51,282 bases of DNA from Catajapyx aquilonaris (lineage: Eukaryota), in contig KZ538724.1 in assembly GCA_000934665.2 (NCBI GenBank), positions 1-51,282 on the forward strand, written 5' to 3'. Shown piece after piece: positions 369-51,282 of the stretch. Each line of letters opens with the position of its first letter. Position 1 is the first letter of the stretch. The notes under the pieces are model-generated. The model saw nothing but the letters and a program-made list of their open reading frames with translations. It was not told where the DNA came from and made no database searches. A program made the position numbers and the translations under genes.

Positions 369-3300
369 TCAACCATCAATCTCTTCATCTCCCAGGCCTG
401 TAATCCATGGTTCCAGTACAGGTACTATTAGTACCTCCTGTCCTTTGTCTTCTATCTCCTTGTCCTCAATCTGAAAATCCTCCTGTACTTTGTCGCCTTT
501 CTCTTTGACATCAATCTGAAAAGTCATGTGTCTCTGGCACAGATCCTGCAAAGGACAAAGAAAAGGTTTTAATATGCAGATCCAAGCAGCTTTAGGAGAG
601 GTAGACTATATCTTCTCACAGTGACATTGAGGCTGTGTTTCAGAGTGTTTCTTTCCTCACTCCCTTCTGGTAGTGGAGGCTTGCTCCTCTTCAACTCCCA
701 CTCCTGCAGTCGTCTGTGAGCTCTTAGGATGGGAATGTTGCTGGTCCTAGCTATATCATCCATATCCCTGTAAGCTTCAAGATACCCAGGCACGAAGCAC
801 TTCTTCCTTTGTTCATATGTGTCCTTCTCCTGGATCAGATCTGATCCTCTCAAAGATTGGAGCACCTTAGACTGACTTTCCTGGATGTACTTAACTCTTT
901 GCTTCTCTAGGAAAGCAGCGCCTGTGAGCAGCATCATATCTGGAGAAACAGGCCGCACTTCCTCTCTCTCCAACTCATTGCGAACCTCCTGCATGGCCTC
1001 GCCTGCTTTCAAAACTAGGAAGTTCTCTATCAGAAGAGCAGTCACAGCATCCTCCTTATCCAAATGTAACTTGCTATGCTCTGTTAAGTAGTGGTACAAT
1101 GAATAAATCTTGGGGCGAAGAGCCCCAGGAAGAGTCAGCAGAGAGGGTCCAGGTTCAATGGCTGCTGGGGTGAAGTTATGGAGAAACACTTCAAGGTTGC
1201 CTGCTAGTGGCAGTTCTGTTTCTGAAATGTAAAAAACATCTCATGTTATTCCACAGAGATATACAGTATACAGAGACATCAACATTTCTAAATACAGATT
1301 AAATCATTTCTGATCAATCTGTCACATCACTCCAAATGAACTCACATGAACTTATGAATCACTAGAAACTGGAAAATAGAGCAGGAATGCAAAGAGGTAC
1401 GGTATGGTGATTAAATTTCTTCCCTTACCCATAACCCATTACAACTCTTCTTGGTTGGTTTGTATTTGTATGCTTTCCTACTAATGCATCCAGAATAATG
1501 ATTTGAAATGGGGGAGGTGTGGTGGCCTTGATGGTAACGTCTCGGCTTGCTGTGTGAAAGGCCCCAGGTTCGATCCCCGCCTGGGGAACTTTCCTTTCAC
1601 CTGCGTCAGGAGGGTCTCTGACCTGCACCAAGGAGGTGTCTGGCAACCTAACCTCCTGGGGAACAGCACATGACCCGTTTTCAGACGTGCACTTGCACCC
1701 ATGTTCCCTCCCCGAAAATCCCCATCCTTACCTCTTGTCCTTTCATCCTTGCACCGGTGTTAGAAGAAAATAATAAGAAAATTTAAGGAAAATGGTGGTA
1801 ATCCACCCCCCTATAAGGGCCCATGGCCCTAGCACGGGGTAACGTAAAAAATAAAAAAATAAATAAAAAATAAAATAAAAATAATGATTTGAAATTCCTT
1901 TCTCTGACCAGAGCCACAAGAATAGATGTGGCTTAAAGAGAGTCCAAAATTACTCAAAAGATACTCATGGTTCCTCAATTGGAACTCTAAGGCTTTGTTG
2001 TACCATGACAGCTGGCGCCAAAAGTGAAGACACAGTAAGTCGCATTTCCTGCCAAAATCAGTTATCGTCACCATCGAATGCTTCTTATCGAGATGCACCT
2101 AATGTACGAGAAATGAGAGAACGCTCTAACGTCATCAAGGTTCCATAGAAATACCCTCACAGAACAATATGAGTAAACAGTGTCAACAAAAAGCAACAAT
2201 GGAAGAAATGATGACTTCAGATCGTTCTACCATTTTCCGTACACTACTGGTATTTTTTTTTGTAGATCTAACTTCAGTCTAAGGGCCAGTTGCACCGGCC
2301 TCAGTATAACTTAGAACCTCGGGTGTAACAAAAATTGCCATAGCAATCATTGTTGGTCAACAATGATTGCTATGGCAATTCTTGTTATACCCGAGGTTCT
2401 AAGTTATACTGAGGCCGGTGCAACTGGCCCTTTAATAGACTCTAAGCTGAGGAAAGGCTGAAACGAAAACACAGTAAGAGCCACCCTGTGCACTTTTGGT
2501 TGTCTTGAGAATTTATTTCCCACAAGTTTGTTTCACTAAACTACTTACTGTGTTTTCGCTTTTGGCAGCAGATCTTCTCAACCATAGGGTTTCTCCTATT
2601 GTTAACTGTCAGCAACACTGAACTGTTAATGACAAGGGCAATAACCCATGTTTGAGGTTATACCTGTAACAGCAGAATTTGATCCTAAGTAAGTAATGAA
2701 AAGTATAGGTTTGTGCTAGACCTTAAAGGCTGAAAACAACAACAACAACATCACCGTCATGACATTTCCCTATAAGGGGTAGTCAGCGATTATGGGAGCT
2801 GCAAGCTAACCCAAAATATGAACTAAATTAAAACTTGTAAATAGAAAAAAACCTACACACAACCCTTCCCGCCCCTCACCCCTGCCCATCTCAGACAACA
2901 AACACTCAATATTAAATTAAAATATAACACTATGCAACGCAGTACTTTGCGAAATCCCCCCCCCCCCCCNNNNNNNNNNNNNNNAGAGGAATCAGCAACT
3001 GTTAAATTCCTCCAATTGACTAGAAAATTATTTTACCGGTTAGTGAGGAACGCCAGTATTTGTTAAATTCCTCCAGTTGCCTATAAAATTTACAGGTTAG
3101 TAAGGAATAACAGTATCCATTAAACTCTTCCAAATGACTAGAATATTAACAGGTTAGTGAGAAGAATCAGCATCTGGAAATTCATACTCGAACTCTAAGT
3201 GCTGTCCAGGACAGAACAGAGAGAGGCAGATACCCTTACAAGCATTACTGTGCAAGAGATATATGCCAACCTGGTAGTTCTCCACATGATGTGCAGAGAA

Positions 3301-3979
3301 TTTTAAGAATAATAATAATTCATACCCCTTTATCAGCCTATCAGCTCTTTAGGGGGGAAGTTTTGTTTTGCCTGGAACTCTTGGCTTTTCATTTTACTGC
3401 GCTTTTTGGGATAGGATAGGGACGGAAGGAAGCGGCTGTGGCCTATTAATTACGGAAACAACTCCGGAATTTTCCTGGAAGGACCGTGGGAAACCACAGA
3501 AAACACGGTCAGAGCTGCCGGCCCCGGGATTTGATCCCAGGACCTGCCGATTAGCAGTCGGACACCATATCCCCTACATCCGCATACACTGTAAGCTTAT
3601 ATAAATGCTGGGGGCTTAATAACATACTTGTTATCCTTCCATCCTTGTCCCTGCTCACACCAAGCAAGGCTTCCTCCTCCCTCCACAGCTGGCAGAGAAC
3701 AGTAGCAATTGACTTCCCATTATTAGAGCTCCTCCATGTCAGCAACTGATCCAATGCAGCAGGGCAGTCTACCATGTCTGCCAGGCATCCCAGAAGGGGG
3801 ACGTGAAGAGGTTGGATGCTCATTGCTAGGATATCCAGCAGCAGGAACAATCCCTCATAAGAGAGGAATCCCTCCAGGCTAGGGAGGCAGCCCACCACAC
3901 AACTCCATGCACACTCCACCACACAGACACCTAACCTGCAAGGCATAATCATATTCTACATGGAAGGAAAGTCATGTCA

Positions 3980-4031
<52 letters not shown>

Positions 4032-7000: not shown

Positions 7001-10000
7001 CACATATTTGACAACTGTCAGCATTGCAAATAATTTAACATACAGGTATCAAATATAGTTGCCAATTGAGGTACTCAGGCGTAAACCTTGGTATATACCA
7101 CAAGATGAAGCTATTTCAGACACAATGAGGAAAATGTTTTTCACTAGCTGTGGTTATAAAGCAACCAACCACTTGGTAGACTGCGTGAGTTGTTATTTTG
7201 AGTCACAAAAATTAGTAATAACTGGTTACCTGGTGATTGGCTTGTGACTCCCTAGACAGAGGGGTTCCTCTTTTGACTAATAGTGGTATACAATATTGCT
7301 CTGTTGTTAATTTTGTTGGTGGAGGAAATAGGAGAACTCTTAGAAAACCCATGTTAAAATAGAGAGAACCTATAATGAAACTTGTTCATGAGAAATTTCC
7401 TCTGTCCGATCTGGGAGGTCCAACTCAGGGTCTCCAAGGTGATCCAAGGTGGTCCATGGCTGCTGTACCAACTCTTACTTTGGGTTCATTTGGAAGAGGA
7501 GAAAATGCCATGTCCAGCTTTACATCCCTATTCCTTTCTATCAGTGGCAAATTGAGTTATAGTAATGGCTGATCACTCCAGAAGGGACTGTAAATTTTCC
7601 ATACGTCACTAAAAAAGGCATGAAGACTGTCATATACTGCACCAATATTTTGTTTCTCTGGGAAGCACCTAGTACATGCAAAAAATACTTAGAAGAAGGG
7701 GTCCACATTTCGACCATGCACCTAATTCCGACCACCATGCTATATCCATGGTAACGCATTGCAAATTGCCGGTGACAGTGGTAAAATGTCACAAAGACGT
7801 AATTGGTGAGCTGGCAGCACTGATGCGAACATCCGCGCATTGTGGAACCTTTGACACCAGTTTGTTCTTAAGCGCATGGTGGACTGCAGCGCATGCTATT
7901 ATTCGCTATCATTTCCCAGCAATTAACCTATGCTATTCAATAATTTATTTTAGCCTATGATGTTGCTTACACTGTTTATTTGCATGTTTTAAAGTATTGA
8001 CATCATGCTGCAACTTGTCGATGTGAACCAGCAGCCCCAGTAGAAAGTTGTCCTGTTCCTAATTTCGACCACCTAGGCATTCCTAATTTCACGAATAACG
8101 TACTATCATGCTCATTTTGACAGTTCCATTTATTTCGCGGAAACTCAAGAAAGAAATCACAGAAAACGTTTGTATGATTGTATTGATCAAGTCATTATTC
8201 AACAGCATAATTTATTTATTTTACAAATAGGGAAAACTTTTCATTTTCATCATGCATATAAACCAGTTTTCATTGTATTGCTATTAATCAAGCATTTTAA
8301 AGCATTCACAAATTTAGAAATGTTCTTTTACACCTTTTCTCCCATTAAAACGCAGGGGTCAAAATTATGAACATTTTTTTAAAACTGAAATAATGGGTGT
8401 TTTCACTTTTTCAATTTTGTGCCCTTTCCAATAACTTTTGTTAAAATTTTCATTGCGGAATCTAGTAGGTAAATGTTCAATGTATTAACATTAATTTTCC
8501 TTACATTGCTGCGTTCACCCATTTTCTAAGAGGAAGAAAACAACGTAAGGGTTTCAAAATTTGGGCCCCTTACCCTACACAAATTTACCTAAAAGCATTA
8601 GCCTACATATTTTCAGATGGATAGAGAGATCTACCTTGTCTGATGAATAATTCTTTGGCACCAGTGTCCACAGACCATTATGATTAGTTTTAGGCAGACT
8701 TTTCCAACCTTTGTCTGATGTGATAGGCACAAGACGCATCAGAGCCCTAGGAATGCAGTTCTTTGTGCTTCTCATTAGGTCTCTGACGTCACCCACACCC
8801 ATCACCTCATGATGGTTACGTTGCTTCCAGGTCAAGACTGACAGAAAGTGAAAACTAAGTGGAGGTCAAGCGAAAATATCTGGTTTAAAAAAATTTGCAT
8901 TTATTCAGAAATGAACATTTCAATATTCAGAATGTTTCCTTTAACCTACTTAGAATCCTACATAACATATCTGAATGTTGGTGCCTCCTTAAAAATTGTT
9001 ACATCATGCACAAGCACATTGCACTTTTGACATACCTGTAATATTACCAGTCAATCATATTTTTTACCATATTACGCACCTCTCAAAATTACGGATGATC
9101 CTTCCAATCTATTATTTGCATTAATATTTTAATAACTTACAACTGCTTAAAAATAAGCCCTCTAGTTATTGTTAACTATTAGGGACATTTAAATATGATT
9201 AGTGTCTGATATAGCTGCATCTTACACTAATATTGACAAGTTCACAATATTGAGTTGAGCATGAACTGATTAAATTAATTGGATCATATCATGAGCTCAG
9301 GCAAAGATATATCACATGAAGTGGCGGAGATATCACTTATGCTGCAAATGTTAAGTATCATCGCCAGGATATAAAATGTGTACATTCAATTATTCTATGT
9401 TCTTGAAATCCGTCTAATTGGAAAGTTTGACGATTTACAGTTTTACACCCAAGAATTTAAAAAGTTCTACTGCACTGCTGTCACTGGATGTCTAGGTGAT
9501 TATCATCCAATATCAAGGCCTTAATGACCAACTAGCAACTTTTAAAAATTTGATTACATTAACAGTTTAATTTGTACAAATTACATATTTCGGGTGTCAA
9601 TAGAGATTTAATTATTTCACTTTGAATCAGGCAGTCTTTCACTCACCAATGATGGTTGATTTGGACACAATAATCCTCAACAGCTTCATCATCTCTTCAA
9701 TTATGTCAAAGGTCTCTGCCAGCTTCATGACCTGCAGCACAATTGATGGAAGTTCGCTCTCCTCAAGGCACTTTGTCATCATTTTCAATGGTGCAGGCAG
9801 CCAGCTCCCATCAGGACTCACTTTCCTGACTGAGTTATTCAAGTCAAGAATGCTTGTTATGGCACAGTAGACAGTAATGTGCACCTCGTAGTGCTCCGAC
9901 ACCAAGTAGCTTCCCATAATTGAAAGGAGGTCCCGAAAGGCATAGTCATACTTCAGTTCATCTGAACGTAACTTCATGCAGAGTGGACAGCTCAATTGAT

Positions 10001-10427
10001 CTATAATGCTTAGAAGCATGAACAAGTATCGAGTGTCTTCATTTACCCTTGCCTCGACGTGAGACATGACGCAAAAAAGATATGGCAACTCTCGTAGGGG
10101 AATTCCATCCTTCTTGATGCAAGCGAGATACAATTCAAGCAACCGCCCATGACGATCCACCATGTCCATTGACCATGGATCTCTCATGAGCTGGCACAAC
10201 TGTCGCAGGTAGGCCACACTAGTCTTGTTCAAATCAGATGGGTCCAAATGCATCTCACTTTTATTCTCTTCTGTTTCACTCATATCATCCTTCCGCTCCA
10301 ACACCTCATCATCATCTTCAACCAGCTCATCTGCCTTACCTTCAGAAACATCCTCAGGAGGCTCCACTTTGAGCAGGCTCAACTCATCCTCCAATTCACT
10401 CACAGTGCAGGAACATCGCAGGGACAT
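369..10427 (-). CDS. CFAP69: Cilia- and flagella-associated protein 69 (ARM-repeat, ~1047 aa). Exons 10427-9647, 6974-6803, 6726-6581, 6267-5712, 5471-5070, 3935-3628, 1221-620, 545-369
   Basis: Exon peptides match remembered CFAP69 motifs: 'CAWSCVVGC...FLSYEGLFLLLDIL...LWREEEALLGVSRDKDGRI', 'RRNDLAAII' and 'LRPKIYSL...EDAVT...FLVLKAGEAMQEV...LEREEVRPVSPD'. All junctions are GT-AG and phases join into one frame (3144 nt). The 5471 acceptor and the last intron (619-546) are the least certain; without that last intron the CDS stops at 569. Confidence 0.88.
1510..1879 (+). mobile_element. tRNA-derived SINE with A-rich tail and 16-bp TSD
   Basis: A box TGGCCTTGATGG, B box GGTTCGATCCC, (A)nT tail at 1846-1879, and TSD AATAATGATTTGAAAT at 1494-1509 and 1880-1895. 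Confidence 0.9.
2101..2245. mobile_element. Decayed ~140-bp MITE, inverted copy of 45508-45648
   Basis: Core 'acgtcatcaagg..ccctcacagaacaat..gagtaaacagtgtcaacaaaaagc.acaatg.aagaaa.gatgac' is the reverse complement of the ELYS-intron copy. Confidence 0.7.
2283..2430. mobile_element. Near-perfect 148-bp palindromic MITE (GGGCC termini, PIF/Harbinger-like)
   Basis: Arms GGGCCAGTTGCACCGGCCTCAGTATAACTTAGAACCTCGGG...CCCGAGGTTCTAAGTTATACTGAGGCCGGTGCAACTGGCCC with a 2-nt spacer; flanked by TAA on the left and TTT on the right. Confidence 0.85.
2970..2984. other. Assembly gap (15 N) after a poly-C run
   Basis: The N run is visible in the sequence. Confidence 0.99.
2985..3183. repeat. Minisatellite with ~57-59 bp unit, about 3.5 copies
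   Basis: Repeated 'gaggaa..cag.a.tgttaaattcctcca.ttg.cta.aaaatt..ac.ggttagt' starting at ~2986, 3045, 3101 and 3159. Confidence 0.8.
3400..3582 (-). mobile_element. tRNA-derived SINE fragment of the widespread insect 'ggaaggaagcgg..gtggcct..tttcctgga..ggaaaccac' type
   Basis: Minus-strand B-box-like GGGATCAAATCCC in a tRNA-like head; the body resembles SINEs remembered from polyneopteran insect genomes. Confidence 0.6.
3982..4023. repeat. (CT)n microsatellite
   Basis: About 21 perfect TC units. Confidence 0.95.
6378..6565 (+). mobile_element. Helitron-like fragment with two tandem 3' hairpins
   Basis: Hairpins caggcctag..gcgaagcgag..ctaggcctg (6481-6525) and aggaaaa..gcgagcggagc..ttttcct ending CTGG|T. 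GCGAAGC-loop hairpins before CTRR are typical of insect Helitron 3' ends. Confidence 0.45.
7691..8575. mobile_element. Decayed pogo/Tc1-like non-autonomous element
   Basis: Left end 'aaggggtccacatttcgacc' versus right-end reverse complement 'gggtaaggggcccaaattttgaaac', with TA after the right end. Internal repeats 'cctaatttcgaccacc' at ~7721 and ~8058. Confidence 0.45.
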
Positions 10428-10955
10428 GGTTCAAACCTGTCATAAAAAGTTTTACTAATGAGGAAATAAAGAAAAATTATATTACTACAGTCATGGCTAA
10501 TATTTATTACATTAAAAGGGGAAAAAAAATGAGATCATTCATGTTCAATACATGAAATACTGCACCAGGATTCAGTCATCTCCGTAACACTCAGTACAAC
10601 ACAAAAAGGGGAAGAAAAGAAAAAGGTTCAAAAACCTGCTGGACACCTCAGTATAAAACTTGTGTAGTTAAATGTTGTCTCCTTGAAACAGATCACAACA
10701 TAACAATTCAGAGGGGGGGAAAAAAGCTGTTAAGAGAGACATATCAGTAATGCAACTTGGGAATATCAATGTCTGCATCTAGATTCACTCCCTGCATGTC
10801 AGATTTTTTTCTCCTGCGACACCACCTTCAAATCAACTTGTCACTTTTAAACCTATGCTAAAACTCTTGGTCCTGAATTTTATGGGGGGATTATGCATGA
10901 GGACTTGTTACAAAGTGGCACTTCATTTGAAATGTAGCACAACAGCAGTCTTTCT

Positions 10956-11696
10956 TTACTTAAGTTGATTGGTGTACTCGTCAAGTTCAGCATCTAACTC
11001 TTCGGCAGTAGGAACACGCCGGGTCTGGCCACCTCGAGCACCACGTCCACCTCGTCGTCCACGTCCCCATCCACCACTCATGCCTCGACGCGGCCAAAAT
11101 CCACGCCCACGTCCACCACCACCACCACTGGTGCCTCCACCTGCAGCTCCAAGATACATAGGGGCATGCATGGGGGCCACTGGGACTTCAGACGTTGCCA
11201 GCTGGATCTTCATAGGGCGACCATCCAACGGCACACCCGTGTACTGCTTCATGGCCTTCACCGCATCAGCCTGCCTCTCAAACGTCACATCAGCAGTGCC
11301 CAGGGACCGCCCGGACCGATCATAGTGCACGGCAGCGGAACGAAGCGGTCCAACCTCAGCAAACAGCTCCTGTATATCGAAGTCGGACACCCCAAAGTCC
11401 AAGTTGGACACCATGAGCTTGCTGGAAGCCAGCAGACCCTGGACACCCGGCTTGCTGCCAAAGTCGTTGAACTTGCCTCGCTGCCAGGGCCGGTTGTTGT
11501 AGCCCCTCATGTACGGGGCCACCCTGCCAACTGCGCCTCCCCTCCTCAGGGTGCGGACGGGCCCAAACCCATCGCCCCTGCCTCCACGGCCGCCTCTTCC
11601 TCTCCAGGACCCCCTGGTACCTCCGCGTCGTCCCCCACGCCGGGTACGGTTCTGCTGGATGATGGCGTCCAGGCTCAAGTCGAGGTGGCTCACCAT
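10956..11696 (-). CDS. ALYREF: THO complex subunit 4 / Aly-REF export factor-like, single exon, 246 aa (probable retrocopy)
   Basis: N-terminal UBM 'LDLSLDAII', RGG region, RRM '[20 protein letters not shown]...[19 protein letters not shown]...[14 protein letters not shown]', second RGG region and C-terminal UBM '[13 protein letters not shown]'. The ORF is uninterrupted. Confidence 0.95.
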
Positions 11697-11895
11697 GATT
11701 CTGCTGCCTCTGCTCCAAACGGCCGGACTCGAACGTCAAGTCAGGGGTCGGGTTGTGGGTAACGTCGATGGGGTCGGGGATGGGGGCTGGGAGAAGGCGG
11801 ACAGCAATGCAGGGAAAGAGCGTCCCGTGGTTTCCTCGCAGAGTTTCAGTCAGGTTTCAGTGGCAACAAACGCCTCGGGACAACTCAGCTGATGG

Positions 11896-11919
11896 GCGCA
11901 TGCGCATTTTGCATGCGCC
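11896..11919. promoter_or_regulatory. NRF1/Ewg-type GCGCATGCGC sites upstream of the ALYREF-like gene
   Basis: GCGCATGCGC at 11896-11905 and GCATGCGC at 11911-11918, about 200 nt upstream of the ATG. Confidence 0.5.
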
Positions 11920-12517
11920 AATTGTAGCAGCTCTTAATAACGGCTAATTAAGTATGCGCTATGCAATTAGTGAATGGGAGTGTCTTCAGCGGTCTTTAGT
12001 CTTTACAGGTACGACAGGAATACGACTTTGGAAAACGCCTATAGAGGATCTATAGGCATGAAATTGCTCGCTAATAGTGTGCTAAATTATGCAACGTACT
12101 GCTTGCTTAACTCAACTGCTATGTACATAACAGCATAACTATATTTCTAACTGCTATGTTACAGCCGGGTACAGTACGGTACTGATCACGGTGGTACTGA
12201 TGTACTGTATACATGAAATGATGCGACTTGCTGCGCCAACAGGTGCAATCGGGCACAACATATGTAAATATGACACCATCAGATACTAAAAGACACCAGA
12301 CACAATGCGGCTTGCGCACGTGCTGTAAACAATCTCGAATGTCAATGCAGCTAATGGTTGTTTGTTCCCATGCAGATAGTTTTGAGTTTAATCTGGTTTC
12401 GGCCGGTCCAGCATAGGAATTCCGACTGAACATTACACTTCCTAAATCGAACCTTAAGGTTTCGCGAATTTCAACTGTGAAAATAAATCGTCCGAATATG
12501 AGCTACGCACACGTTAC

Positions 12518-12780: not shown

Positions 12781-13605
12781 GAATCTGCAACCATACGATT
12801 TGTCCTGAATGCGCAAAAAAAATGCAAATATTGACGTAATTATTTTTTGCGAATATTTTGCAAATATTTTGTAGTGATGTAGTGTACTGACAGTAGATAG
12901 TACCAGTACCTATACTTCCTGCTACCCCCCCTTCAGTACTGCTCCCCCTGCCTCCTCATCACCTCATTAGCAGAAAGCCCGTCATAAACCAAGGCCGTCG
13001 ACCACCAGCCGCAGCAAATGTGACTCACTGCATGGGTTGAACCGCTGGCTGGACCATCGAAGCTTCTTCACACTCCGTATCTCATCTGTGTACACACAAA
13101 CTTGTAAGCCATGCAACAACTGCCCACCATAAACCCGCCCACTTTCATATACTAATCAAGTGATAAGATCTGGCCCCTGGTTTGGGGTCAAACTGCCACA
13201 GAGCAGTCAGTTTTTTTTATCTGCCCAGTTGAGTGCATGTCAGGTGACGCTCTGGTGGGCACCAGTTTTCGCTACCTGGTATCTAGAGTGTGACCAAGTC
13301 TCTCGGGGAAGTGTTGTCTCGCAGTGTTGAGCCCAGTTGCAGAAAATGGTGTTTGCAGGTACTGTCAGGAAGGGTTACGTAACTGACATTTAACTGGCAG
13401 GAGTGATGGGTTGTGAGGAAATGGTGGGTGTGGCCAGTCTTGTCAGCCGTTATATGATTAGGGCGGGTGGCTAGTCTTTCTGTGCATTGCTCGGTCTTGT
13501 TTCAATGAGCTAGATTGCTGGGAAGCCCGTAGAGCAGCTTAAGACCTTGCAGATTATGATTACAACAGTTGTTGATGATTTAATTTTTCCTCAGGAGTGA
13601 CCAAG

Positions 13606-16600
13606 ATGTTAGCCTCAAGACATGGGTCCACAAATGCAGATCCGTTGGACCCCAACTCGGTGGAATGTGTGGTTCCGCCAACAACTACCAAACGGGGGAG
13701 TGGAGGAGAGAAGGCACCGCTTTTGAACCAGAGGCGCTTTCCATGGCGGTTGCTGGGGAGCCTGCGGTACTCCTCGTCGTCTTCGGCTGCGCCTGGAAAT
13801 CCACCTGCTGAACAGCCGACTGCACGGACTCTCAGCACGTTTGCTGGGGTGTTTTCACCTGTCACATTGTCCATGTTTAGTGCGCTTCTCTTTTTACGAG
13901 TGGGATATGTCATTGGAAACGCAGGGCTTCTGGAATCACTCATTCAGCTTGCCATCGCCTACTCCATACTTGTTTTTACTGTCACTTCGATCTGTGCCAT
14001 TTCCACAAATGGAGCAGTGGAGGGAGGAGGTGCTTACTGTATCCTTTTGTGCTGTTGTGTACATTATCAGTTTTTATCTCTCATAGTGCTACTTTTTATG
14101 CATAAACACAGATACAGGAAATTGACACCACTCATATCCTGTATGAAAGTCCATATTTTGCAATTGTTTTCCTTGACTAAATTATTTTATAGTCATGGTG
14201 AGCCGGACTCTTGGTCCTGAACTTGGAGGGTCAATTGGGGTGCTCTTTTTCTTTGCTAATGTAGTCAGCAGTGCCCTCTACATTGCTGGCTGCACTGAAG
14301 GTCTCATCCAGAATTTTGGGCCATCAGGTATGAAGGGCATGTTGTTTTATTGTAGAGATAGTTGCAATTATGTGATTACATGTAAGAAGGAAACAAATTA
14401 TGACAAATTAGGACCATGTGAAATTATTAAATGTACGCGTCCCTATCTGACTCGTTATAAAAGCAGCGTGACTGCCCTCCTAATTTAGACTTCCTGGTGG
14501 CTGCTCTTCATATCAGTGATAAACCGTTTTCCAGAGGGGTGTGAGTTTCTGGTTCAGTATACAAATCTCATCTTGACTACATCACAACCTCATTTTCTAA
14601 CACATCCTTAAAAAATTTAAATCAACAAGTGGTGCTTTGTCATAGCTGTAAAGGACATGGAGCTTTTCAAAGCTGATTGCATAAGAAGGGGAATTATTGT
14701 TTAGCTCTGCAAGTGTTTACAAACAGATAAGAATAATAGGGGTGTGTGCCTGAGACCATCCAACATGATTGGCAGCTACATTGGAATGATTAAGCCACAC
14801 GTGAACCATATATGCTGAGCATCTGTAATAGTTGCTATCAGCTTAATACATGATATCCATTAAATATGAACATAATGCAAATTGCAAAGTCATTGTTAGG
14901 CAGCAAATTTAGTACTTTTAATTGACACCTTTGTAATATAGGATTATAGGTTACACTCGTAACCTGCATTTCACATGAATTTATAACAAGTGATCCTTAT
15001 TTTCAGGGTACTTGTTAAGTGAAGGTGAGACTATTCTGCCCGACGGTCGGATGTGGCGCTTTCTTTACTGCTCTTGCCTGAACACACTTGGCCTGTTTGT
15101 CTGTCTTATTGGTGCCGCAATGTTTGCCAAGACCAGTGTCATCATCCTGGCTGTTGTATGCATCTGTCTCTCATCAGTGATTATCAGCTTTTTTGTGGAA
15201 GGCCCGAAAGAGGTGAGTTACTGCACCATCCGGATGCTGTATGACACTGGGAAAAATTCATTCCACTGTCACCCACCCAGCAGGCTTGCGTGGCATTTTA
15301 AATACATGCAGCCAGTGTGGCATAGATTGATAGTTTTCTCCGTTTTCAGGTTGGCCTTCCTGCATCCAACACACTAGTGCAGAATAGTACTCATCCAGTG
15401 AATGGCACGTACACTGGCCTGAGTTCTGAGACACTCCATGAGAATTTTTTCAGTGGATATAGTCGAGACTATACCATGGATGGGCAGCTGGTGGACTTTG
15501 CAACTGTATTTGGTGTCCTCTTCAGCGGTCTGACTGGAATAATGGCAGGTGCCAACATGTCTGGAGAGCTCAGAAATCCAGGACGTAGCATCCCCAGGGG
15601 AACTCTCTCAGCGATTGCTTTCACTGGATTCGTCTACGTGACATTAGCTCTTCTGACTGCAGCCACGTGCTCACGATTCCTTCTTCAGAATAACTACATT
15701 TACATGCTGGGTGTAAACCTGTGGTCACCATTTGTCACCATTGGTATAATCACTGCCACATTCTCAGCAAGTTTGAGCAACCTGATTGGCTCTAGCCGAG
15801 TTCTAGAGGCTGTGGCAAAGGATGAGATATTTGGATGTGCCCTTAACTTTGTCGTCAAGGGCACCACAAAGGGCGGGAATCCAGTGGTTGCCGTGGTCGT
15901 TGCCTGGCTGCTAGTGGAGCTCTTCCTCATGATTGGATCTTTGAACCTGATTGCACAGCTGAACTCGGTCCTGTTTCTGCTGGCCTACCTGGCCATGAAC
16001 ATGGCTTGCCTTGGTTTAGATCTGGCTTCTGCCCCAAACTTTCGGCCTACATTCAAGTACTTTGGATGGCACACTGCTCTGATTGGTTTGCTTGGGACTG
16101 TCACCATGATGTTTGTCATCAACCCAGTCTACGCCAGCTTAAGCATGGTTGTCTGTCTAGTGCTGGTTATTGCCCTTTACCTCTTCTCACCAACGAGGAG
16201 CAACAATTGGGGATCAATCAGTCAAGCTCTCATCTTCCACCAGGTCAGTTGGCAGTGTTGTTAATATTACAATTTCTCTGCTCACTCAAATGCAACTTGT
16301 GCCTTGTTCTTCATCAGGTACGCAAATACCTCCTAATGCTGGACTCTCGTAAGGACCATGTGAAGTTCTGGCGCCCCCAGATTCTACTTTTGGTTTCGAA
16401 TCCCCGTGCCGCCTGCCCACTGATTGACTTTGTGAACGACCTGAAGAAGGGTGGCCTGTACGTTCTGGGCAATGTCAAAGTAGGGCAGTTTGAGCAGATG
16501 GAGACGGATCCTACTTTGGAGGAATATTCATACTGGCTTTCTCTGGTGGATCACCTCAAAGTCAAAGCATTTGTGGAGCTTACTGTTGCTCCGTCTGTCA

Positions 16601-17798
16601 GAGAAGGAGTGCAGCACATGATGCGAATTTCAGGTCTTGGAGCGATGAAGCCAAACACCATCATCCTGGGCTTCTATGACCATGATAGGCCTACTGACTT
16701 TTTTGAAACGTAAGGAATTTAAAATATCGATTGCATTTACTCCAGTCTAGATCATTGGACAGGCTGATACATACGTATCTGTTGTTACACTAATTAAGAG
16801 TACTGTAAGTAGGCATCTAGTCTGAAGGAGCACGATGATTTGCCTAATTGAGATAACTATTTCATGTTGTCATGAAAAACTCCCGACAGTATGTGATAAG
16901 CTTTGGGGCTTACCATTTTTGTCCTTGCAGGGAAGAATCCCCTTTCAGAACAGAGCGGTTCAGATCCTGCATGGTGGAAGGTATAGAAATTTACACCCTG
17001 AGAGCCACTGAGGAGAAGTCTGTGGATCTCTTTGAATATATGGCCATCGTCTGTGACGTTCTCAAGATGAATAAGAATGTATGCCTATGTCGCAACTTTG
17101 CCCAACTTGACAAGAACGTTGTTGCCAAGTGAGTCTCTTAACATCCCTTGCACTGAGAATAGTGATGTAATTATTTATTCCCTTCTTTTTTAGGAGTCGC
17201 CGCCTGACTTTCATAGATGTGTGGCCAGTGAACTTCTTTGATCCTAATGATGTGGGTTGCCTGTTTGACACAAGCAGCTTATTCATGCTTCAACTAGCTT
17301 GCATCCTGAACATGGTGAACAGCTGGAAGGGACTGAAGATCCGTGTCTTTGTGTGTGGAACACAGTCAGATACCGATGCCCAGAGGAGAAAAGAGCATCT
17401 GAGTACCCTTCTGGCAGAACTGAGGATACACGCTTCCATCTGCATCCTTAGGCTCGACCAGGTGGTAAAGGCTCAGCAAGAGGATGCTCCTGAGGAAGAC
17501 TCGACATCTCCATGGCAAATTGGGGCCATCAAAGATGAATACATACAAGGGTAGGTGATGTGTGAAACCTTCAAACATCGCTGTGTGTAATATTGTGAAA
17601 TATTGTATTTACAGAGCCAGACAGTTGATGAAACAACAATCTGGCAATACGGCTGTCAGCTTGCTCTATCTGCCTCCGCCACCAAAGGAATCCGACGCCT
17701 GGCAGACCTATTTCCGACTTCTGACCAACCTGACTGAAGCACTTCCACCAACTGTCCTTGTGTCAGGAGTCAGTGCTGTAGTAACCACCACCCTCTAA
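13606..17798 (+). CDS. SLC12A9: Solute carrier family 12 member 9 (CIP1-type cation-chloride cotransporter, ~932 aa). Exons 13606-14038, 14193-14327, 15007-15212, 15350-16243, 16318-16709, 16931-17128, 17194-17550, 17615-17798
   Basis: Motifs '[27 protein letters not shown]', '[32 protein letters not shown]', '[13 protein letters not shown]', '[38 protein letters not shown]' and '[10 protein letters not shown]...TTTL*' match remembered SLC12A9. Phases are consistent; total 2799 nt. Confidence 0.95.
14039..14192 (+). other. U12-type (minor spliceosome) GT-AG intron in SLC12A9
   Basis: 5' splice site GTATCCTTT at 14039, branch site TTTTCCTTGAC at 14167-14177, AG 15 nt downstream, no long polypyrimidine tract. 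Splicing restores GGAY-F-MVSR. Confidence 0.92.
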
Positions 17799-21597: not shown

Positions 21598-24500
21598 TCA
21601 CGAAGTTACGCTACTTACTCTCTCCTCAGACTCCCTAAGAACTTGGGCCACAGGATTGCTGAGCGCACGCCGCAAGTCCTCATCCAAAGGTGACAGAGGT
21701 GAGGTGACCAACACACTAGGGGTAACCTGGTGATGCTGCTGGTGGTGATGGTGGACCAAGGCAACCCTTGGGCTTCCCCTAGTTTGCTCTGAATGGTGGC
21801 AACCTTCGGGACACCTACCACCACCACTGCCCCCTCCGCAAGTGTACACACACACTTCCTGGTCCAAAAGTGCCTCTTGATATCTCTCTTCAGTCTGATG
21901 CACCAGGGTGCGGCGAAGCATTGACTTGTCAGCCTTCAGTTCCTCTGAAAAAACAAAAGGCACAAGTAGAAAATGTCACATGGAGGGATGGCTCAAGCTG
22001 ACAAGACCTGGTTCACATAGGTTAGTTAACCCTTTGGGCAATCTTGGAAAGGACATTAGTAAAATTATGGCAGTTGGGTTTCTCAACTAAAATAATTGGT
22101 ATATGCTGCAATCGATGAATGTCATTTTTTTTTTAAGGTTGCCTTCCATGTCAAATGTCAAGGGTCAACAGTGCACTTGATGATAAAAGCATGAAATTTT
22201 GTAGGCATGTCCTTGGGACCATACTATTCTAATTCAGATTTGGCGCCACGCCCGATTTCGTCCAAGAGGCCCGTAATTGCGGGTTGCCTACCCTTCACCT
22301 AGTGAAAAGTATTTTTAAAGTCGCTGTATCTCCAGAAATACGGACCGTACGTGGAAAAGGTACTTGTACATTTTTGTAGAATACATGTTTCTCTACAACC
22401 TTTGTTTGACACATATCCTCCTGAGAAGCACAGCTCACTCAGAAAAATGCTTTTCACTCGATTCAAGGTAGCCAAACAGCCTCCAGGGCGAAAACGGGGG
22501 TGGCGCCATATCTGCATTTGAAGAGTGTGGTCCCAGGGACATTTGCACCAAATTTCGTCCCTCCAAACCATGTTAAGGAATAAAAATAATAATTTTTCTT
22601 AGCGGCGGCACGCCAACATTCTTCATAGCAGCCGCCATTATGGATTCTTTTCTTTTCCCACGGTGCAGGCTTTTCCCAACAGATGGCTAAGTACACTTAT
22701 AAGTTACTAGAGGTTGTATCCCCGAACATACACCATCCATTTTCGAGCACTTCTCTCTGGCAGGCTCGTTTAAAATGTCTGAAAACAATTTATCTCCAGA
22801 GATACATTGCTAATTAAAGGGTTAAGTTATAGAATTTGCATTGCTCCATCTCTAAATGCTGTTCACCTGACCCAAAATTTGGGGAAATTGAGTATGCTAC
22901 TGGTAAAAAATGTATTGACACAACATCCACCACAAATGTAGCAACTAACCAGCGAGGTGTGTTTGATGCAACAGTCCCACAATTTCCTCATCATCACCAG
23001 AGTCGTGATGTTGCAGTCCTGCAAATTGGGGCCGTTGTTTGACAGCCATTATAAAGCCCTGGGGTGGTCCTGGAGTGCTGCAGGCACCTGGTGTGGTTGG
23101 CCCTCCTCCACCACCACTGCTGCCTTGTGAAGAAGCCATTACACAGGTGACCTCTAGGTCTTCGTCGTCATCATCCCCATCTTCATATAGGGCAGCAATG
23201 GACATTTTGACTCGGCAGGATATTCGTTGCAGTGCCACAGGGGTGGCCAGACGCAGACTTCGCTTGTTGCTGCGCCTGGCCACACTGAGTGGGGTGGCTG
23301 CAACAGGAGTGCCTCGTGGAGTACACAGGAAAGGAAGCGAGTTCTTCAGACCACTGAAGGTAAGTTGTAAGTGGCAGTTTGGAGGCAGCACTGTCTTCTT
23401 GGCAGGGGTAGTGAAGATCACCTTTCCCTCACCCACTTCTCCGTTGAGAGTTAAGTCAAAATCCTCTGCAGTCAGGGTTTTCTGTACAAAACCAAAAACA
23501 TACAAATCATGAAGACTACTTTTAAAGAATGCACTATATCATTTAACTACGGCACAGTTGGAAGCGGGTATGAAAATTCTACTATGCACAGTTTGCAACC
23601 TTACCTCTTCGCAAATGGTTTCTTCCAGAGGCTGGACTGCAATGTCTAGATTGGAAGAATCTAGTTGGCAATTGTGCAATTGTGGTGAGCGTCTTGCAGG
23701 AAATTGCAAGGTCTCGCCAAAGCATAGTTGATGCTTGGCCCTGGGCTCCTTAAACCTCTCTCCGCTGGCCAGCAGCGGTGCAAGAGACTTTATTTGTGTT
23801 GTTTGCGACACTACACTCTTGATATTCCTTGCAGGCAATAATATCTGCCGCCTGGGCTTTAACCTGGTCGTCAGGGATGGCCTTAAAGGTGGCCTTCTAT
23901 TCACAATGCTTAGTTTTTCACCAGATCTATTCTTGATCCTGATGCTGCTCCTATCCAGCTGCCTCAGTTGCTCCTGCTGAACTGACCGAGGAACTCTCTG
24001 GGGCTGTAAAACTCCACTGGATTCTTGGAACTTAGTTAACCCTCGCTGCTCTGAAAAGGAGGGTGTTGTGATCCTACTCTTGGTCCTGTTATTCTCCTCC
24101 AACTGTCTCAGTTGCTCCTGTTGAACTGACAGAGGAACTCTCTGGGGCAGGATAACTTTTGTGGTCTCTTGAGAATTAACTGTAGCTCTTGGCCGTGAAA
24201 AGATCTGTCCTGTGGTCTCCTCAGTCTGACCACCGACTGATCCTGGGGGCCTTCGAGGTCGAAATGTGAACTGAAGGGCGTTGGAGGTGTTGCAAGGCGT
24301 TTGGGTGGATGGGAGGCACCTCTGAGGGCGAAATAAAGGAAAAGTTGGGGCAGGGGAGAATGCAGGTAGACCCGCCTGGATCCTCTGAACAGACAAGGGG
24401 ACTCTTTGGGGGAAGAATCGAGGTTGAGTGGTGAGAGTGCTCGTGGAAACCACAGGTTGTCCTAAGGTTTGTCCAGGAGCTGGGTTGTGTGGACCCAGGG

Positions 24501-27500
24501 GCCCCCTCTCGTCCCGGTGGTGAGGGCGAAGGAGATTCAGACGTGGTGCAACTCGAGTGAGGCATCCTGTGGTGTCCTCAGCAGGTACATCTTGATCTTT
24601 GGAATACTTTGGCTCATCATTGCCGAATCGGAATGTAATTTTCCTAAAAATGGAGACAGATCCCCTAATGAATGGTAAATAACAACAGTACAGTTCTGGT
24701 CATATATCGAGGCAACCGCCAGCGACATTTTCCGAAGCGGCAGAAGAAGGAATCGAAGATAAGCATACTTCAAGCATGGGCGACCAAGATTCCTTCTTCT
24801 GCCGCTTCTGTCGCTGGCGGTTGCCTCGATATATGACCAGAACTGTACTGCAAATAAATGCACAAATATCTCCTTCATTTCTGCACTAACCTAGAACGCA
24901 AGTGTTGAATGCAACTGGACATGGCAACAGCTTCACAGAATTTCATAGTGCTTCCTAAACCACATTCATTCCCAATGGTACCAATAATGTGCTATCAAGT
25001 CTTAACCTAATGAAGCTTATTGTAAGCTCCCCCAAAAACAAAACCCGTTCATGGCACAACTCCCTTACCAAACTAACAAGTAATTAGGATAGAGTGCATC
25101 CAACTGGCCTGACAATTATGTCATGGGTACATTGTAGCCAGAATCTTCATTGGTGAAAATCGAAGTGTTCATATGCACATTTTTAAAAAAAAGAAGTGGC
25201 ATCCATGGTTGTGTGTAGATGACAATGATCAATGTGTAAAAATTCTGTTCCTGTCATAAACTGCCAAATATGTATTTCAAGCATAAAGTAAACAATAAAA
25301 TGTATTACATGCACTGGCTAAAATTACCATTAAAATATGCAATACAGCAAGTGATACAAAGAACACTGCATGTAAAGTGTTATTTTTGATTCAGGCTAAC
25401 AAAATGTTGTGGTCATTGGTCAACTGAGCCCCCTGATACATCCAGCCTAGCCCTGTGTTGAAGGTTGTTTAATATAAAAGGCTCCGCTAGGCAGGGAATG
25501 TGGCGCTGGCGCTCCTCCACAGCCTGCTACTGGAGGGTAGATTCGGATTGGCCACCTTCGGAACCAACCCAAACCATCCTTTCCTTACATAGGAGGGTGT
25601 TCGCATGCGAACGGGCTCTGAGGAAAGGACGGTTTGGGTTGGTTCCGAAGGCAGCCAATCCGAACCAACCCTCCAGTAGCTGGCTGTGGAGGCGCACCAG
25701 CGCTACATTCCCTGCCTAGCAGAGCCTTTAATATTAAACTACCATATCATATTTGTGTCAGGGGGCTGGGTAAACTGCTGTGACGGTATCATGCCCTATA
25801 CTGTCCCCCATTTCAACCACTAAGAGGCCTATTAATGCAACAAAAAAAGAGTCAAAAAACAGTGAAGGACAGTGAGAAGTAACGACAATGTCCATTCTGA
25901 ATCCTTTTGTAATGCAAGACTTCACTTTTATGCACTGTTAGGCATCTTTTGCACACCACTATTTTCAAAACACAATACTCATAGCTTGCCAAACACTTTC
26001 TGCCTGATTTGGCAGTATTCTTTAGTAAAACATGGATACTTTTTCACATTACATTCCTCACCTCAAGTTCCAGGTATGCTTCTAGTTATGAGCATATCCA
26101 TCAGCATCATAAAATTTGAGTGATTAAGTTCTGAGATTCTGTGGCATTAGTCACACAAAGCAGTAATGGCAATGCTTCTCAGAGCACAGAAACAATGATT
26201 AAATTGGGATGGGTGCATCAATGAAACCATGGATCAGAACCTAGCACCTACGCAGAAGTGTCTTATGTATGCTTAATTCTTCTGCTTTCAGGCACCTTGT
26301 ACTCCCGTGAAAAGTCAAAACCGTCTATCTGCATTTTCGCGGTTTTCCATTTTATAATTTCAACATGGAAGTGAGGGCACCCTCCTGCCATCTGGCATTC
26401 TGGTGGTGTTAGAATCACCCATCTGCATGAGGGTCCGAGATTCAGAGAGGGCAGAACCGTCAATCTGCAGACTGATGCCAAGAGAGATGTCAGGTCAAAA
26501 CCATCTATCTGCAACCAGCCAATGAGGAGGCATATAGTTTGGTCACGTTCCAGCTAAGCAGCTCAAATGACAGTTCTTCTAATTTAATGCTCTAGCAAAT
26601 ATTAATATTCTACTTATCACACAAACTTATGATTTGGGAGAGCTAGGAACTTTAAATGCAATTTACTCAGAAAGTGAATTTTGTCACTTAGAGGGTTTTG
26701 ACTTTTCATGGGAGTAACTGAAGGGCCACTGCCTCCAGAATCAGAGATGTTGAAATAATGAGCAGAATGAGCTCGAGCATGCAAAAAGCAATGTATCATG
26801 ATAGAAATGCGTTAACCCAATAAAAATTTGAAAACAACGAAAGAGGTGCCCCCGCACCCAGTCTATTCCAGCCATTCCTGCTATTGCCACACATGATGCC
26901 ACCAGTCACCTGGTCCAACTAAGGTACTAAGCATGTGGCAGAGGGAAGACTTTGGCAGCAAATAGAGCCATTATAAGAACATTTCAAATGTCTGGAAGAG
27001 CTTCTGCCTCAGTCCAACTTTTGTGCAGCTCCTTGCCATTGGTCAGCTCTACAATTCCTTTTTTTTTAAAAGAGCCCACTTAACAGTCATCCTCAGGGGG
27101 GATGAAATGGCAGATTCTCAATTAAGGCTAAGAAAATTTGGATGTTAGGTAACATGGTCTTACATCAGAGCAAGTTTTGTAACACTGGAAGTGGAATTCC
27201 ATTTGGTTCTGAGTGCTACTCATTCTGGTCCAGACCGCAGTTTGAATCCTGGAACTCATGTAGCATGGGCTGTATGAGATTTGATATACACCAACATGCC
27301 TCGTACAAAGCAACAATAAATCTGGATAATTCAGGTTTGCAAGTAGTACTTATCTCTTACATACGCTGGCATGCTTTTTCTGCCACGAGTAGGTCAAGGA
27401 TTGCACAGCAGTGATGTACAAAGATTAGTCTTTTTGTCCATTCAAACTACGTAAGGCAATCTGAATCCCTCTTAGGGTTTTGACATATCTAATAAGCTTT

Positions 27501-33603: not shown

Positions 33604-34047
33604 TGCATTTGTGAGACGTTGACATTTTTTGGATTTATATTTTACTTTTTGGCAATGCACGGATAATCTGAAACATGGATAATCCGCACCTCGATAATAG
33701 GGTTTACCGTGTATAGAAAAATGCAACACTTCATTACATTACAGTGTTGTTATAATGATCCTGGGCCCATGAGCAGGGTAATGTAGGGAAGCAAGGTGCA
33801 GTGTTGGTGATTTTGGGCTTTCCCATGGATTGTTAGTCTTGTGGAAATCCAACATGAGACAAATCCATAGATAACTTAACTCCACAGAGGGTGGATGGGG
33901 AGAAGACCAGCTAGAGATCAATCCTGAGGCCTCCTGTTGGCGGTATACATTACTGAAGTGCCGCACCATCTCCCTTGCAGTTTGATGATTACATGTTTCG
34001 TTTCAGGTTGGTAACTTTTGGAGGTTCAAAATTCCCAGTAGGCAGCC

Positions 34048-37000
34048 ATGGAACTCTTGTTATCTCCAGTTGAAGTTCACAAGCAAGGAACATTTGGAGA
34101 TGTCATTCATGCCAACCTCAGTGGAGCTGGTCCTGACATGGTCAAGAGGGGAAAAATTTTAAAGGGTAAGCAGCCACTACAATTGATCACACAGTTACAG
34201 TTACACATCCTACCATGAGCATATTAAGTTAAATGTATTTTAAAAAGTAATGGGACATAGGGTTCTTATGTATAAAAGTATTTGCTGACTGACAAAAAAA
34301 TAAAATTCGCTTATAATGTCCAACATATTTATCATTTTAGATGGAGTTCGTGGGTGCATGAGCTGTGGGTTCCAATTAGTTGTGTTCAACCTGGTCACGG
34401 GACAGCCTCTCAACAAATGGAACTTACCATGTGGCCCTTCAAGGGAATTTGAACCTGAATTGGTGTCCGTGGTGGAACTGTCTGAAGATGAGTTATGTCT
34501 AGGACTAGACTGTGGTGTTGGTGGAATGGTCTGCGTTGTGGAATACTCTGGGTCTGTCTTGTCCAGGTATGATAAAGGATCAGATTTTGGATTTATTAAA
34601 AGGGCCATCAACAGCTAGGCCAAGATTGCAAGCATACTATGTTTAGAAGACGTATACCTTAGCCTTTGCAGCAGATGAAACATACTCTGCATATGAACTC
34701 ATAGCACTAATGTTGATGCATTTTATACAGGGTGGTCGGTAAATGGTGCGCAAGCTTCAGGTAGTGAGATTCTTTGGGAAAAACCAGTATATGGAAGTGA
34801 AGGTCCTATTGCTCTACGATGCCTGGTTAGAGCTCACGAGACCTCCAAAGTTTGGGCCAAATCATGACGTCACATCCGCCAGCGAAATTCAAACACTACC
34901 ATATTGCTACTGTCTGCGGTGTGTTGCCAGGGGTTGCCATGTTGACATCCCGTACGCTAGTGTTTGAATTTCGCTGGCGGATCTGACGTCATGATTTGGC
35001 CCAAACTTTGGAGGTCTCGTGAGCTCTAACCAGGCATTGTAGAGCAATAGGACCTTCACTTCCATACACTGGTTTTTCACAAAGAATCTCGCTACCTGAA
35101 GCTTGCGCACCATTTACCGACCATCCTGCTTATTTATTTACCTTAGTCTGGAAGGGTTTGCTTGTTGCCTAATAATTTCCTGTATGCTGTACTTGGCATC
35201 ATTGCAAATGATAGGTCTTGCAAGTTATTATACAGTGTGCCCTGAATTTCTGTGGTAACATGATGTTTATTTCTTCTGGTCACAGATGCATTCAGATACC
35301 ATTCCGTGTTACTTCCCTCGCCTTGGTTCACCTGCCAGAGGAGAAACATTTACGGCACCTCAGTCCTGATTTGCAAAGCTTTTGTGGGACTGTGGCTGTT
35401 GGCACATATGACGGACAAGTTCTTATGTTGGACCTTGAGTTTGGAAAGGCATCCAGAGCCAGTAGAGATGTCCACGCCTGCTTTCCCATAGTGGGGATGT
35501 CACAAAGGCTGACAGGAAGAGATGGACAGAATCAGGTCACAGCCATGGAGTTTATTCCACAGCTCCTCAGTCTAGCCATTGGATTCAGTGGGGGTGCATA
35601 CCATGTCGTTAGCATGACCAACCTGCAAGAGTGAGTTGATATTTTGCATGAATTCTAAATTATTATAACTGCAGTATTTATTTTGGGTGCAATTTTAACA
35701 AAGGAAACCCTTGAAAGAGGCCCAAAGCTTGTAATCCGTTTTTCTGCTTGCTTTTAATCAATCACTTATACCAGAAAATTACAATATTATTGACTCATCC
35801 AAAATCACACCACATGTGTGTATGGTGAAACTTTGTAATGTGAGCCTCCAAGGGTCAGGAGAAAACGTCGAGTCATATGGCATTTGACAACACATTTCAG
35901 GACAGATTTCTGACATTATACTCTCTTGACTGTCAGGATTTGCTCTGGAGGATGTGAAGAGGTGGGTGCTCCTGTCACCCACTTTGCGTTTCAAGAACCT
36001 GAGAATGACCCTTGCCACTGCTGCTACTTGTGGGTGTCACATAGTAATGGAGCAGATGTAGTGGAAATTGCACTCTATGCACTCATCTTTGGCCACAAGG
36101 ACTTTATGGATGAAATTGGATTTGTGTACAGGGTGAGTTGAAATGTGGTTGGGTGTGGGGATCAGTTGGGGGTAAGAGCATAATATTAAACTAATGGAAT
36201 GGTAAATAGTACTTTTCTGTAATCAAGACCACAGTCGTCGGGTGAGATCAATACTATTGTAAGTCACAAAATAGTAGTTTCACAGGAAAAAATTTTGAAA
36301 GTGTTTTACTCTGTGCAGCTGGACATACAATAATTTCGTTCTAGTGATGTCACAGGCGCATGGTGTAAGGTGGACTTGAAATAAAAATTCAGCAGATACG
36401 TCTCTTAGAGTAGAATATGGTGGTGGACTTACCCTGAAATTGAATTTCTTGGACTTACAATAGTATTGATCTTACCCGACGATATCTGAACACCAAATTA
36501 ATGCTTATGGTGGAGCAAATATGTTAGAACTTTGTAGTGTTTCCTAATCTATTGTAACACTCAATTAACTTGAGTTGTGGATTATTTCAGTCCCTGCACC
36601 AGGTAAGGCTGCGCTTCTGGCACAGCCTCCCAGCCTCGTGTCGCATGCTGTCTTGCCAGGTAGTCCCCAATCCTTGGGGTCCAGCCAGCCCAACCAGTGA
36701 GTCTCATCCAGTCCAGGTGGACGACCTCAACTTTTGCCTCCTAGTGTGGCAGGGCAGCACACCATCACCCGACAGCAGGCCATCCACGTCATACGTCCAT
36801 CTGGCCCTTTTTGACCTTAACATGTGGTATCTGGCCCACATGCCCGACAGCATGGCTTCTCCCTATGAGACTGAGGAGCTTTGCCCGTACGTTGGGTACT
36901 TCTCACTCCGAGGAGTAAAGTCAGTCCTGGATGTGGCTATTAGGAAGAAGACACTCACAAAGTTTCTGCCATGTACAAAGTTGACTGAGGAGCAGTACTA

Positions 37001-50877: not shown

Positions 50878-51282
50878 GTCAGTTATCTTTCATTTTCAGA
50901 GATTGCATTGTTGTAATATCTCTCATCATTAATCACTTGTAGACACCCTGTAGTTCTATTCACACAGCTTGTTTTTGGTGTGGCATACGTGCCCTATAAA
51001 ATAACAGTTCCGATCAAGTTACTCACTCGTTCATCTTATATGAGTGGCGTTCATCTTACAGTTTGGTCATAAGTGCAAGAGTTAGAATTTGCAATTAGTT
51101 TGCATGGTGCTGGGTGAGTGTAAAGGAAGATGCTTTTTTGGATTGCACATTTATTGAAATTGAGTATTTTAAAATACAAATGGTAATTCCAATTGTGTGG
51201 AACTGTGTCATTCTGGTTCTTGGTTGTTGTGTGGCCAGCTACAATTCGGAGTGCTGGTGCGCATTGTCTTTCTTTGGAAAAT

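Follow-up and report, generated by a model that had tools for sequence, protein, structure and literature searches.

The locus analysed here raises the question of what becomes of an ALYREF-family gene, and of the TREX adaptor function associated with it, when the encoded protein lacks the H and D of the conserved W-x-H-D motif. In human cells, the substitution WQHD>DQAK in ALYREF abolishes co-immunoprecipitation of eIF4A3 and CBP80 and not that of UAP56, and lowers both the binding to and the export of spliced reporter RNA (PMC4797287). Similarly, BTZ/CASC3 with HD>AK in its own copy of this motif no longer binds eIF4A3 (PMC4797287). In cryo-EM, WxHD docks on EIF4A3 through interface b, in addition to two interfaces formed by the RRM, with human R144 as an “R-finger” toward EIF4A3-MAGOH (PMC7614608), and E124/E128 and Y166/V169/P170 of the human RRM contact the cap-binding complex (CBC) (PMC11405014). 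The role that an earlier note on this DNA had assigned to WxHD, namely the contacts with the exon junction complex (EJC, through eIF4A3) and with the CBC, agrees with all three reports. As WxHD is the one element of ALYREF at which mutation in human cells uncouples these contacts from binding to UAP56 (PMC4797287), an expressed animal ALYREF without H-D would be a natural separation-of-function variant.

The gene in question is located in a window of 51,282 nucleotides (the whole stretch of DNA that was analysed) and is an intact, transcribed and intronless member of the ALYREF/THOC4 (REF) family. Its open reading frame on the minus strand consists of a single exon and starts at the first in-frame ATG past a stop, in a good context (A at -3, G at +4). 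Pfam analysis of the encoded protein, hereafter the ORF protein, detected RRM_1 at residues 94-162 (E 4.9e-12) and FoP_duplication (PF13865, the FoP/ALY C-terminal duplication) at residues 185-242 (E 3.5e-08). Of all solved structures, that of human THO complex subunit 4 (ALYREF; 7znk_L, E 1.5e-52, residues 2-243) matches best, and the ALY RRM chains in the PDB match at E 1.7e-38. Other traits of the family are also present, including Arg/Gly-rich regions on either side of the RRM and a C-terminal duplication region with an LDxxLD UAP56-binding motif, and the order of elements (N-UBM, RGG, linker, RRM, RGG, C-UBM) is the same as in canonical metazoan ALYREF/THOC4 (human 7znk). An open frame alone would be weak evidence here, since the antisense frames of the same G+C-rich Gly/Arg-coding stretch are open too, up to 254 codons; the Pfam RRM_1 and human THOC4 matches to the 246-aa product bear out the earlier description of an intact single-exon ALYREF-type ORF with an RRM. 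The coordinates of all features are collected in Table 1.

Table 1. Features of the ALYREF-family gene and its surroundings (positions in the window; a dot marks a feature without strand)
Feature	Position	Strand	Basis
Coding sequence, ALYREF/THOC4 family, 246 codons + TAA	10956..11696	-	ORF, Pfam, structure match
N-terminal UAP56-binding motif, residues 5-13 LDLSLDAII, core SLDA not SLDD/E	11658..11684	-	alignment; motif definition after PMC4797287
Arg/Gly-rich region 1, residues ~17-60	11517..11648	-	translation; domain naming after PMC7614608
W71-Q72-R73-G74, in the place of W-x-H-D (eIF4A3-binding element)	11475..11486	-	alignment to human and 117 relatives
RRM, residues 93-169; F115V and N153T unique	11190..11420	-	Pfam, structure match, relatives
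Arg/Gly-rich region 2, residues ~183-226	11019..11150	-	translation, FoP_duplication match
C-terminal UAP56-binding motif, residues 229-241; LDxxLD core kept, A240E unique	10974..11012	-	alignment
5' leader without upstream ATG (11697-11880) and probable promoter; GCGCATGCGC at 11896-11905, GCGCATGC at 11911-11918	11697..11918	-	sequence scan
Probable 3' UTR, AATAAA at 10508-10503	10492..10955	-	X1 contig end at 10492, hint only
One collinear 1759-letter X1 contig, no joint, no differing letter	10492..12250	.	RNA-like run X1
First coding exon of CFAP69-like gene; ATG 10427-10425	9639..10430	-	pyrimidine tract and AG precede ATG

Alignment with the human protein (7znk_L) places K-W-Q-H-D-L-F over P-W-Q-R-G-K-F of the ORF protein. 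The best 120 matches from a search of 5.8 billion protein clusters were taken as relatives, and W-x-H-D was observed at the aligned place in 118 of these (82 WKHD, 33 WQHD, 2 WTHD and 1 WHHD), the two exceptions being a 381-aa multi-RRM protein (P0002) and a 155-aa fragment (P0112). Removal of these two and of a tandem fusion (P0001) left 117 full-length relatives from arthropods and vertebrates, in which H and D are each kept in 117/117, and the ORF protein has R and G. The replacement of W-x-H-D by WQRG that had been read from the letters is thus borne out by both the human alignment and the relatives, and the loss of H and D in the ORF protein is, by comparison with these sequences, derived. 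In addition, 22 metagenome loci were matched, nine of which span the motif; W-x-H-D is kept in eight (seven by tblastn alignment, L001 by translation) and L015 is ambiguous.

Variations were also observed in the other functional elements. At position 11, which closes the N-terminal SLDD/E core, the ORF protein has A and all 117 relatives have an acidic residue (114 D, 3 E), so that the N-terminal UAP56 motif reads LSLDAII, with S, L, D, I and I kept and A as the fourth core residue. The C-terminal UAP56 motif, ELDAELDEY, retains L234, D235, L238 and D239 and carries A240E, a change unique to the ORF protein (A in 117/117 relatives). Within the RRM, F115V is likewise unique (F in 117/117), as is N153T (103 N and 14 H among the other 117), and the equivalents of human E124, E128, R144, Y166, V169 and P170 are all retained. 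The statement of the earlier note that both UAP56-binding motifs are kept holds in part: both are recognisable and LDxxLD is preserved, but the N-terminal core is SLDA and A240E alters the C-terminal motif.

Evidence for transcription came from a sequencing run, X1, whose kind is unrecorded and which contains all sampled words of the window. Adjacent to the ALYREF gene is an SLC12A9-like cation-chloride cotransporter gene (13579-17614, plus strand) with GT..AG introns of 64-75 nt that are confirmed by RNA-like contigs. The X1 contigs skip these introns (17128>17194, 17549>17614, and 16240 joined to 16315) and the DNA run X2 reads straight through them, indicating that X1 behaves as RNA. The single collinear X1 contig over the ALYREF gene therefore indicates that this gene is present in RNA without an intron, and the prospect that the ORF might be untranscribed, which the earlier note had named as adverse to its reading, is not borne out, as the RNA-like run covers the gene unspliced. 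At the 3' side, AATAAA lies 11 nt before the end of the contig, a contig end being only a hint of a transcript end. At the 5' side, no ATG occurs within 184 nt of the start codon, and some 200 nt in front of it there is an exact GCGCATGCGC palindrome, a putative NRF-1-type housekeeping site. With at most one mismatch, the GCGCATGCGC pattern occurs twice in the window, where 0.37 occurrences are expected, and as many are found in 5 of 100 shuffles. The X1 contig extends 554 nt upstream of the ATG, past this palindrome and through a stretch with several ATGs (11900-12250); as contigs give no strand or start, the coverage there may stem from a transcript that is divergent or lies upstream, and not from the ALYREF 5' UTR.

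On the other side of the gene, only 65 nt separate the ALYREF poly(A) site from the ATG of a CFAP69-like gene, and the pyrimidine tract and AG in front of this ATG resemble a 3' splice site (10425-10492, minus strand). CFAP69 may accordingly have an upstream non-coding exon, with the ALYREF gene inside its first intron or sharing its promoter. In X1, no joint was found from the CFAP69 exon to anything upstream, that exon being covered by only a 239-letter piece. The introns of CFAP69 (1-667, 1335-2001 and 2002-4002) contain very high-copy repeats, with a DNA word depth of 10,000-131,000, compared with about 32 in single-copy sequence, and with many contigs that have joints, and these are probably SINE-like elements.

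The gene had been proposed to be retro-duplicated, and this proposal survives in part. Consistent with it, there are no introns in either the coding sequence or the transcript, as seen from the single-exon ORF and the collinear X1 contig. Against it, no A-run was found beyond 10492, the 3' end of the transcript, and a direct-repeat scan of the transcript flanks returned only short chance-like pairs and no target-site duplication. An old insertion would have lost both the poly(A) tract and the target-site duplications, and retroposition is a possible origin that has left no hallmark, to which we give somewhat less credence than to the view that the gene is a paralogue at all. No second ALYREF-like stretch was detected in the window by tblastn with P0003, and the depth of the DNA run X2 over the ORF (32.5-35.4) equals that of the single-copy flanks, which indicates that there is no near-identical duplicate. 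The observed/expected CpG ratio is 0.71 in the ORF, 0.12 in the 3' UTR and 0.12-0.58 in neighbouring exons, values that point to a CpG-depleted genome and an old locus and that do not tell housekeeping and tissue-specific genes apart.

The degree of constraint on the protein was assessed from conserved alignment columns. The ORF protein keeps 75 of the 81 columns that are conserved at ≥95% among the other sequences; its six deviations compare with a median of 0 and a maximum of 7 in the other 117, and two canonical-looking proteins deviate as often (P0071 with 7, P0014 with 6). With thresholds of 90% and 99%, its deviations number 11 in 93 columns (maximum of 10 in the others) and 4 in 59 (maximum of 3), respectively. 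By this measure, the ORF protein is at the upper edge of family variation, not outside it. Neither the ORF protein itself nor any relative above about 60% full-length identity was found in the protein database (5.8 billion clusters), and the best full-length identity in metagenome contigs was only 44-49%; synonymous sites would be saturated at such distances.

The neighbouring SLC12A9 gene provides a yardstick for these distances. One of its exons (312 aa) is about equally distant from all hexapod orders, springtails and Daphnia among the best 120 matches listed, with 66-71% identity to insects of many orders, 67% to springtails, 66% to Daphnia and none above 71%, which indicates an isolated hexapod-like branch that is unrepresented in the protein collection. 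Fifteen insect species with both ALYREF and SLC12A9 among the matches were chosen; as the branch of the ORF protein enters into all 15 comparisons, these are not independent of one another. Against these species, the ORF protein has a mean identity of 56% over the full length and 83% in the RRM, at 67% SLC12A9 identity, compared with 65% (minimum 57%) and 89% (minimum 84%), respectively, for 51 other insect pairs of similar SLC12A9 identity. The full-length regression residuals of the ORF protein range from -0.008 to -0.07, with one at +0.018 (SD 0.05), and are thus within about 1.4 SD; those of the RRM range from +0.009 to -0.077 (SD 0.024). A tree of 63 rows, comprising the ORF protein and 62 hand-chosen members of the best 120 (32 named and 30 unnamed; 58 left out), placed the ORF protein at the base of the insect clade with SH-aLRT 98. 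Its terminal branch is the longest in the tree (0.82 vs a median of 0.083), followed by those of Cloeon (0.59) and P0089 (0.50), and its root-to-tip distance in the insect clade (0.82) is inside the hand-summed range of canonical insect proteins (about 0.26-1.0). Taken from these comparisons, the acceleration of the ORF protein is real but mild.

Motif-less ALYREF proteins as a kind are not new, as annotated “-like” copies exist in several insects. In a family screen, a regular expression for W-x-H-D within 70 residues before the RRM was applied to the 150 best representatives of a library clustered at 50%, yielding 82 with the motif, 38 without and 30 not assessable; the resulting 38/120 is a crude figure, as plants and broken gene models are among the 38. 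Ten of the 38 were looked up, and named motif-less copies were found in five insect genera. Contarinia nasturtii has an “aly/REF export factor 2-like” protein (P0326) that reads WKQG besides a canonical WKHD copy (P0403). W-x-H-D is also absent from two “THO complex subunit 4-like” proteins, one of Uranotaenia lowii (P0307) and one of Toxorhynchites rutilus (P0357), from a Trichogramma protein (P0268), and from the representative (P0296) of a Leptinotarsa decemlineata cluster. These “-like” copies have both UBMs and the RRM, and Contarinia P0326 has the D>G change in common with the ORF protein. However, their RRMs are more diverged, and they are not close kin of the ORF protein, to which P0326 is 44% identical. 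In terms of RRM identity to Blattella, nine motif-less copies range from 57% to 81% and seven canonical copies from 79% to 88%, with the ORF protein at 83%.

We consider, with a little better than even confidence, that the gene encodes a functional TREX adaptor and that it would most likely be an additional, lineage-specific copy, with a canonical ALYREF located elsewhere in the genome. The constraint on the protein (75 of 81 conserved columns kept, RRM 83% identical to insect orthologues) suggests that it is functional. Several observations suggest that it is additional: the motif is intact in every canonical arthropod and vertebrate copy of the close sample, with H and D in 117/117; the one motif-less insect copy checked in this respect, that of Contarinia, is additional to a canonical one, which by analogy provides a precedent; and the terminal branch is the longest in the tree. 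Other observations suggest the opposite. The divergence is only mildly raised, with a root-to-tip distance within the canonical insect range and an RRM as conserved as in orthologues, and the canonical-looking P0071 and P0014 deviate at as many conserved columns. In addition, the RRM is more conserved than in 9/9 motif-less copies examined, and the gene has neither a poly(A) tract nor a flanking direct repeat, nor another copy in the window.

A less probable reading that still deserves serious consideration is that the gene is the sole ALYREF orthologue of an isolated hexapod-like lineage, a native gene that lost its introns and in which three short linear motifs drifted while the housekeeping TREX role was kept. 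The position at the base of the insect clade is what the SLC12A9 similarity of this lineage to all hexapods would predict, the ALYREF divergence is near the expectation from the SLC12A9 distance, and the conservation of the RRM equals that of canonical orthologues. A housekeeping-like promoter with the exact palindrome (a putative NRF-1-type site), the presence of the gene in the RNA-like run and a DNA depth that leaves no room for a near-identical duplicate are consistent with it as well. What argues against a sole orthologue is that H, D, F115, A240 and the acidic position 11 are kept in 117/117 relatives, as it would be unusual for a sole essential gene to carry unique changes at four or five invariant positions, and that in the one case checked (Contarinia) the motif-less copy accompanies a canonical one. 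A third reading, in which a transcribed processed copy without protein-level selection is becoming a pseudogene, could draw on the loss of residues invariant elsewhere and on the open antisense frames, but is very improbable in view of the intact 246-codon frame with 75 of 81 highly conserved columns kept, an RRM 83% identical to distant orthologues, an uneven spread of changes, the good ATG context without upstream ATG in the proximal leader, and a 3' UTR CpG ratio that indicates long residence during which the frame survived.

If the gene is a functional adaptor, as we favour, the consequences of its altered motif can be outlined by analogy with the human protein. The R-G in place of H-D would cripple interface b, with the RRM interfaces and the CBC-binding surface predicted to be intact, and the EJC coupling of the ORF protein would be expected to be weakened, not abolished. 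The proposal that the protein is uncoupled from the EJC and the CBC was thus overstated: the RRM retains both the R-finger and the residues that contact the CBC, and loss of coupling to either complex may be partial. RNA binding and hand-over to UAP56/NXF1 are expected from the preserved RRM, the two Arg/Gly-rich regions and the C-terminal UAP56 motif. In such a scheme, the ORF protein would still bind RNA through its RGG regions and pass it to UAP56/NXF1, UAP56 binding being kept at least via the C-terminal motif, with the N-terminal core presumably weakened. Its recruitment to mRNPs would then depend less on the exon junction complex and more on the cap-binding complex, on surfaces of the RRM and on direct contacts with RNA, a mode well suited to messages that have few introns or none.

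The two leading readings differ in what they would mean. If the gene is an extra copy, it joins several annotated and unstudied insect copies, and as a group these would point to a repeated origin of splicing-independent export adaptors. Were it the only copy, the more surprising outcome, TREX would operate without the eIF4A3-docking motif in an animal whose genes contain introns. A broader proposal, which we regard as rather unlikely, is that the gene belongs to a recurrent and undescribed class of insect ALYREF copies that independently shed the H-D of WxHD (WQRG here, WKQG in Contarinia, others motif-free), kept the RRM and UAP56 motifs, and would serve as splicing-independent TREX adaptors for intron-poor messages. 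A literature search on ALYREF with WxHD, retrogenes, insect paralogues and Ref1/Ref2 in testis returned nothing on motif-less insect copies.

Known systems offer partial parallels. Human ALYREF has a gene with several exons. The ORF protein differs from canonical ALYREF/THOC4 in WQRG, SLDA, F115V, A240E and N153T, and its gene in the lack of introns in the transcript. In the mouse, Alyref2 and Refee (Gm4340) are ALYREF-derived, stage-restricted copies that bind UAP56 and NXF1 and are partly catalogued as retrocopies (10.1101/2025.08.21.671216); they are lineage-specific copies whose origin is mammalian and independent, and mALYREF2 keeps a near-identical WxHD (PMC11405014). The yeast ALYREF orthologue Yra1 is without WxHD, as is the ORF protein, but budding yeast has no EJC at all (PMC11405014), whereas the ORF gene adjoins ordinary spliced genes. 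Within insects, Ref1 and ref2 of Drosophila provide an example of a two-copy REF family (PMC3674997); the earlier note had likened the present gene, as a possibly germline-specific adaptor, to Ref2. The Leptinotarsa decemlineata cluster represented by P0296 is a case of higher number: ten ALYREF-like proteins (P0296 and P0389-P0397) fall in one 90% cluster, nine of them on one 8.6-Mb contig, which looks like a tandem expansion, and no report of such an expansion in this species was found in the literature.

Other frames were observed elsewhere in the window. A 386-aa open frame at 23539-24699 on the minus strand has no Pfam match and contains repeated “PQRVP.SVQ..QLRQL” units. In addition, an ELYS/AHCTF1-like nucleoporin gene occupies 34000-51000 on the plus strand; it encodes beta-propeller and ELYS domains and continues into long exons of low complexity that are acidic and rich in lysine.
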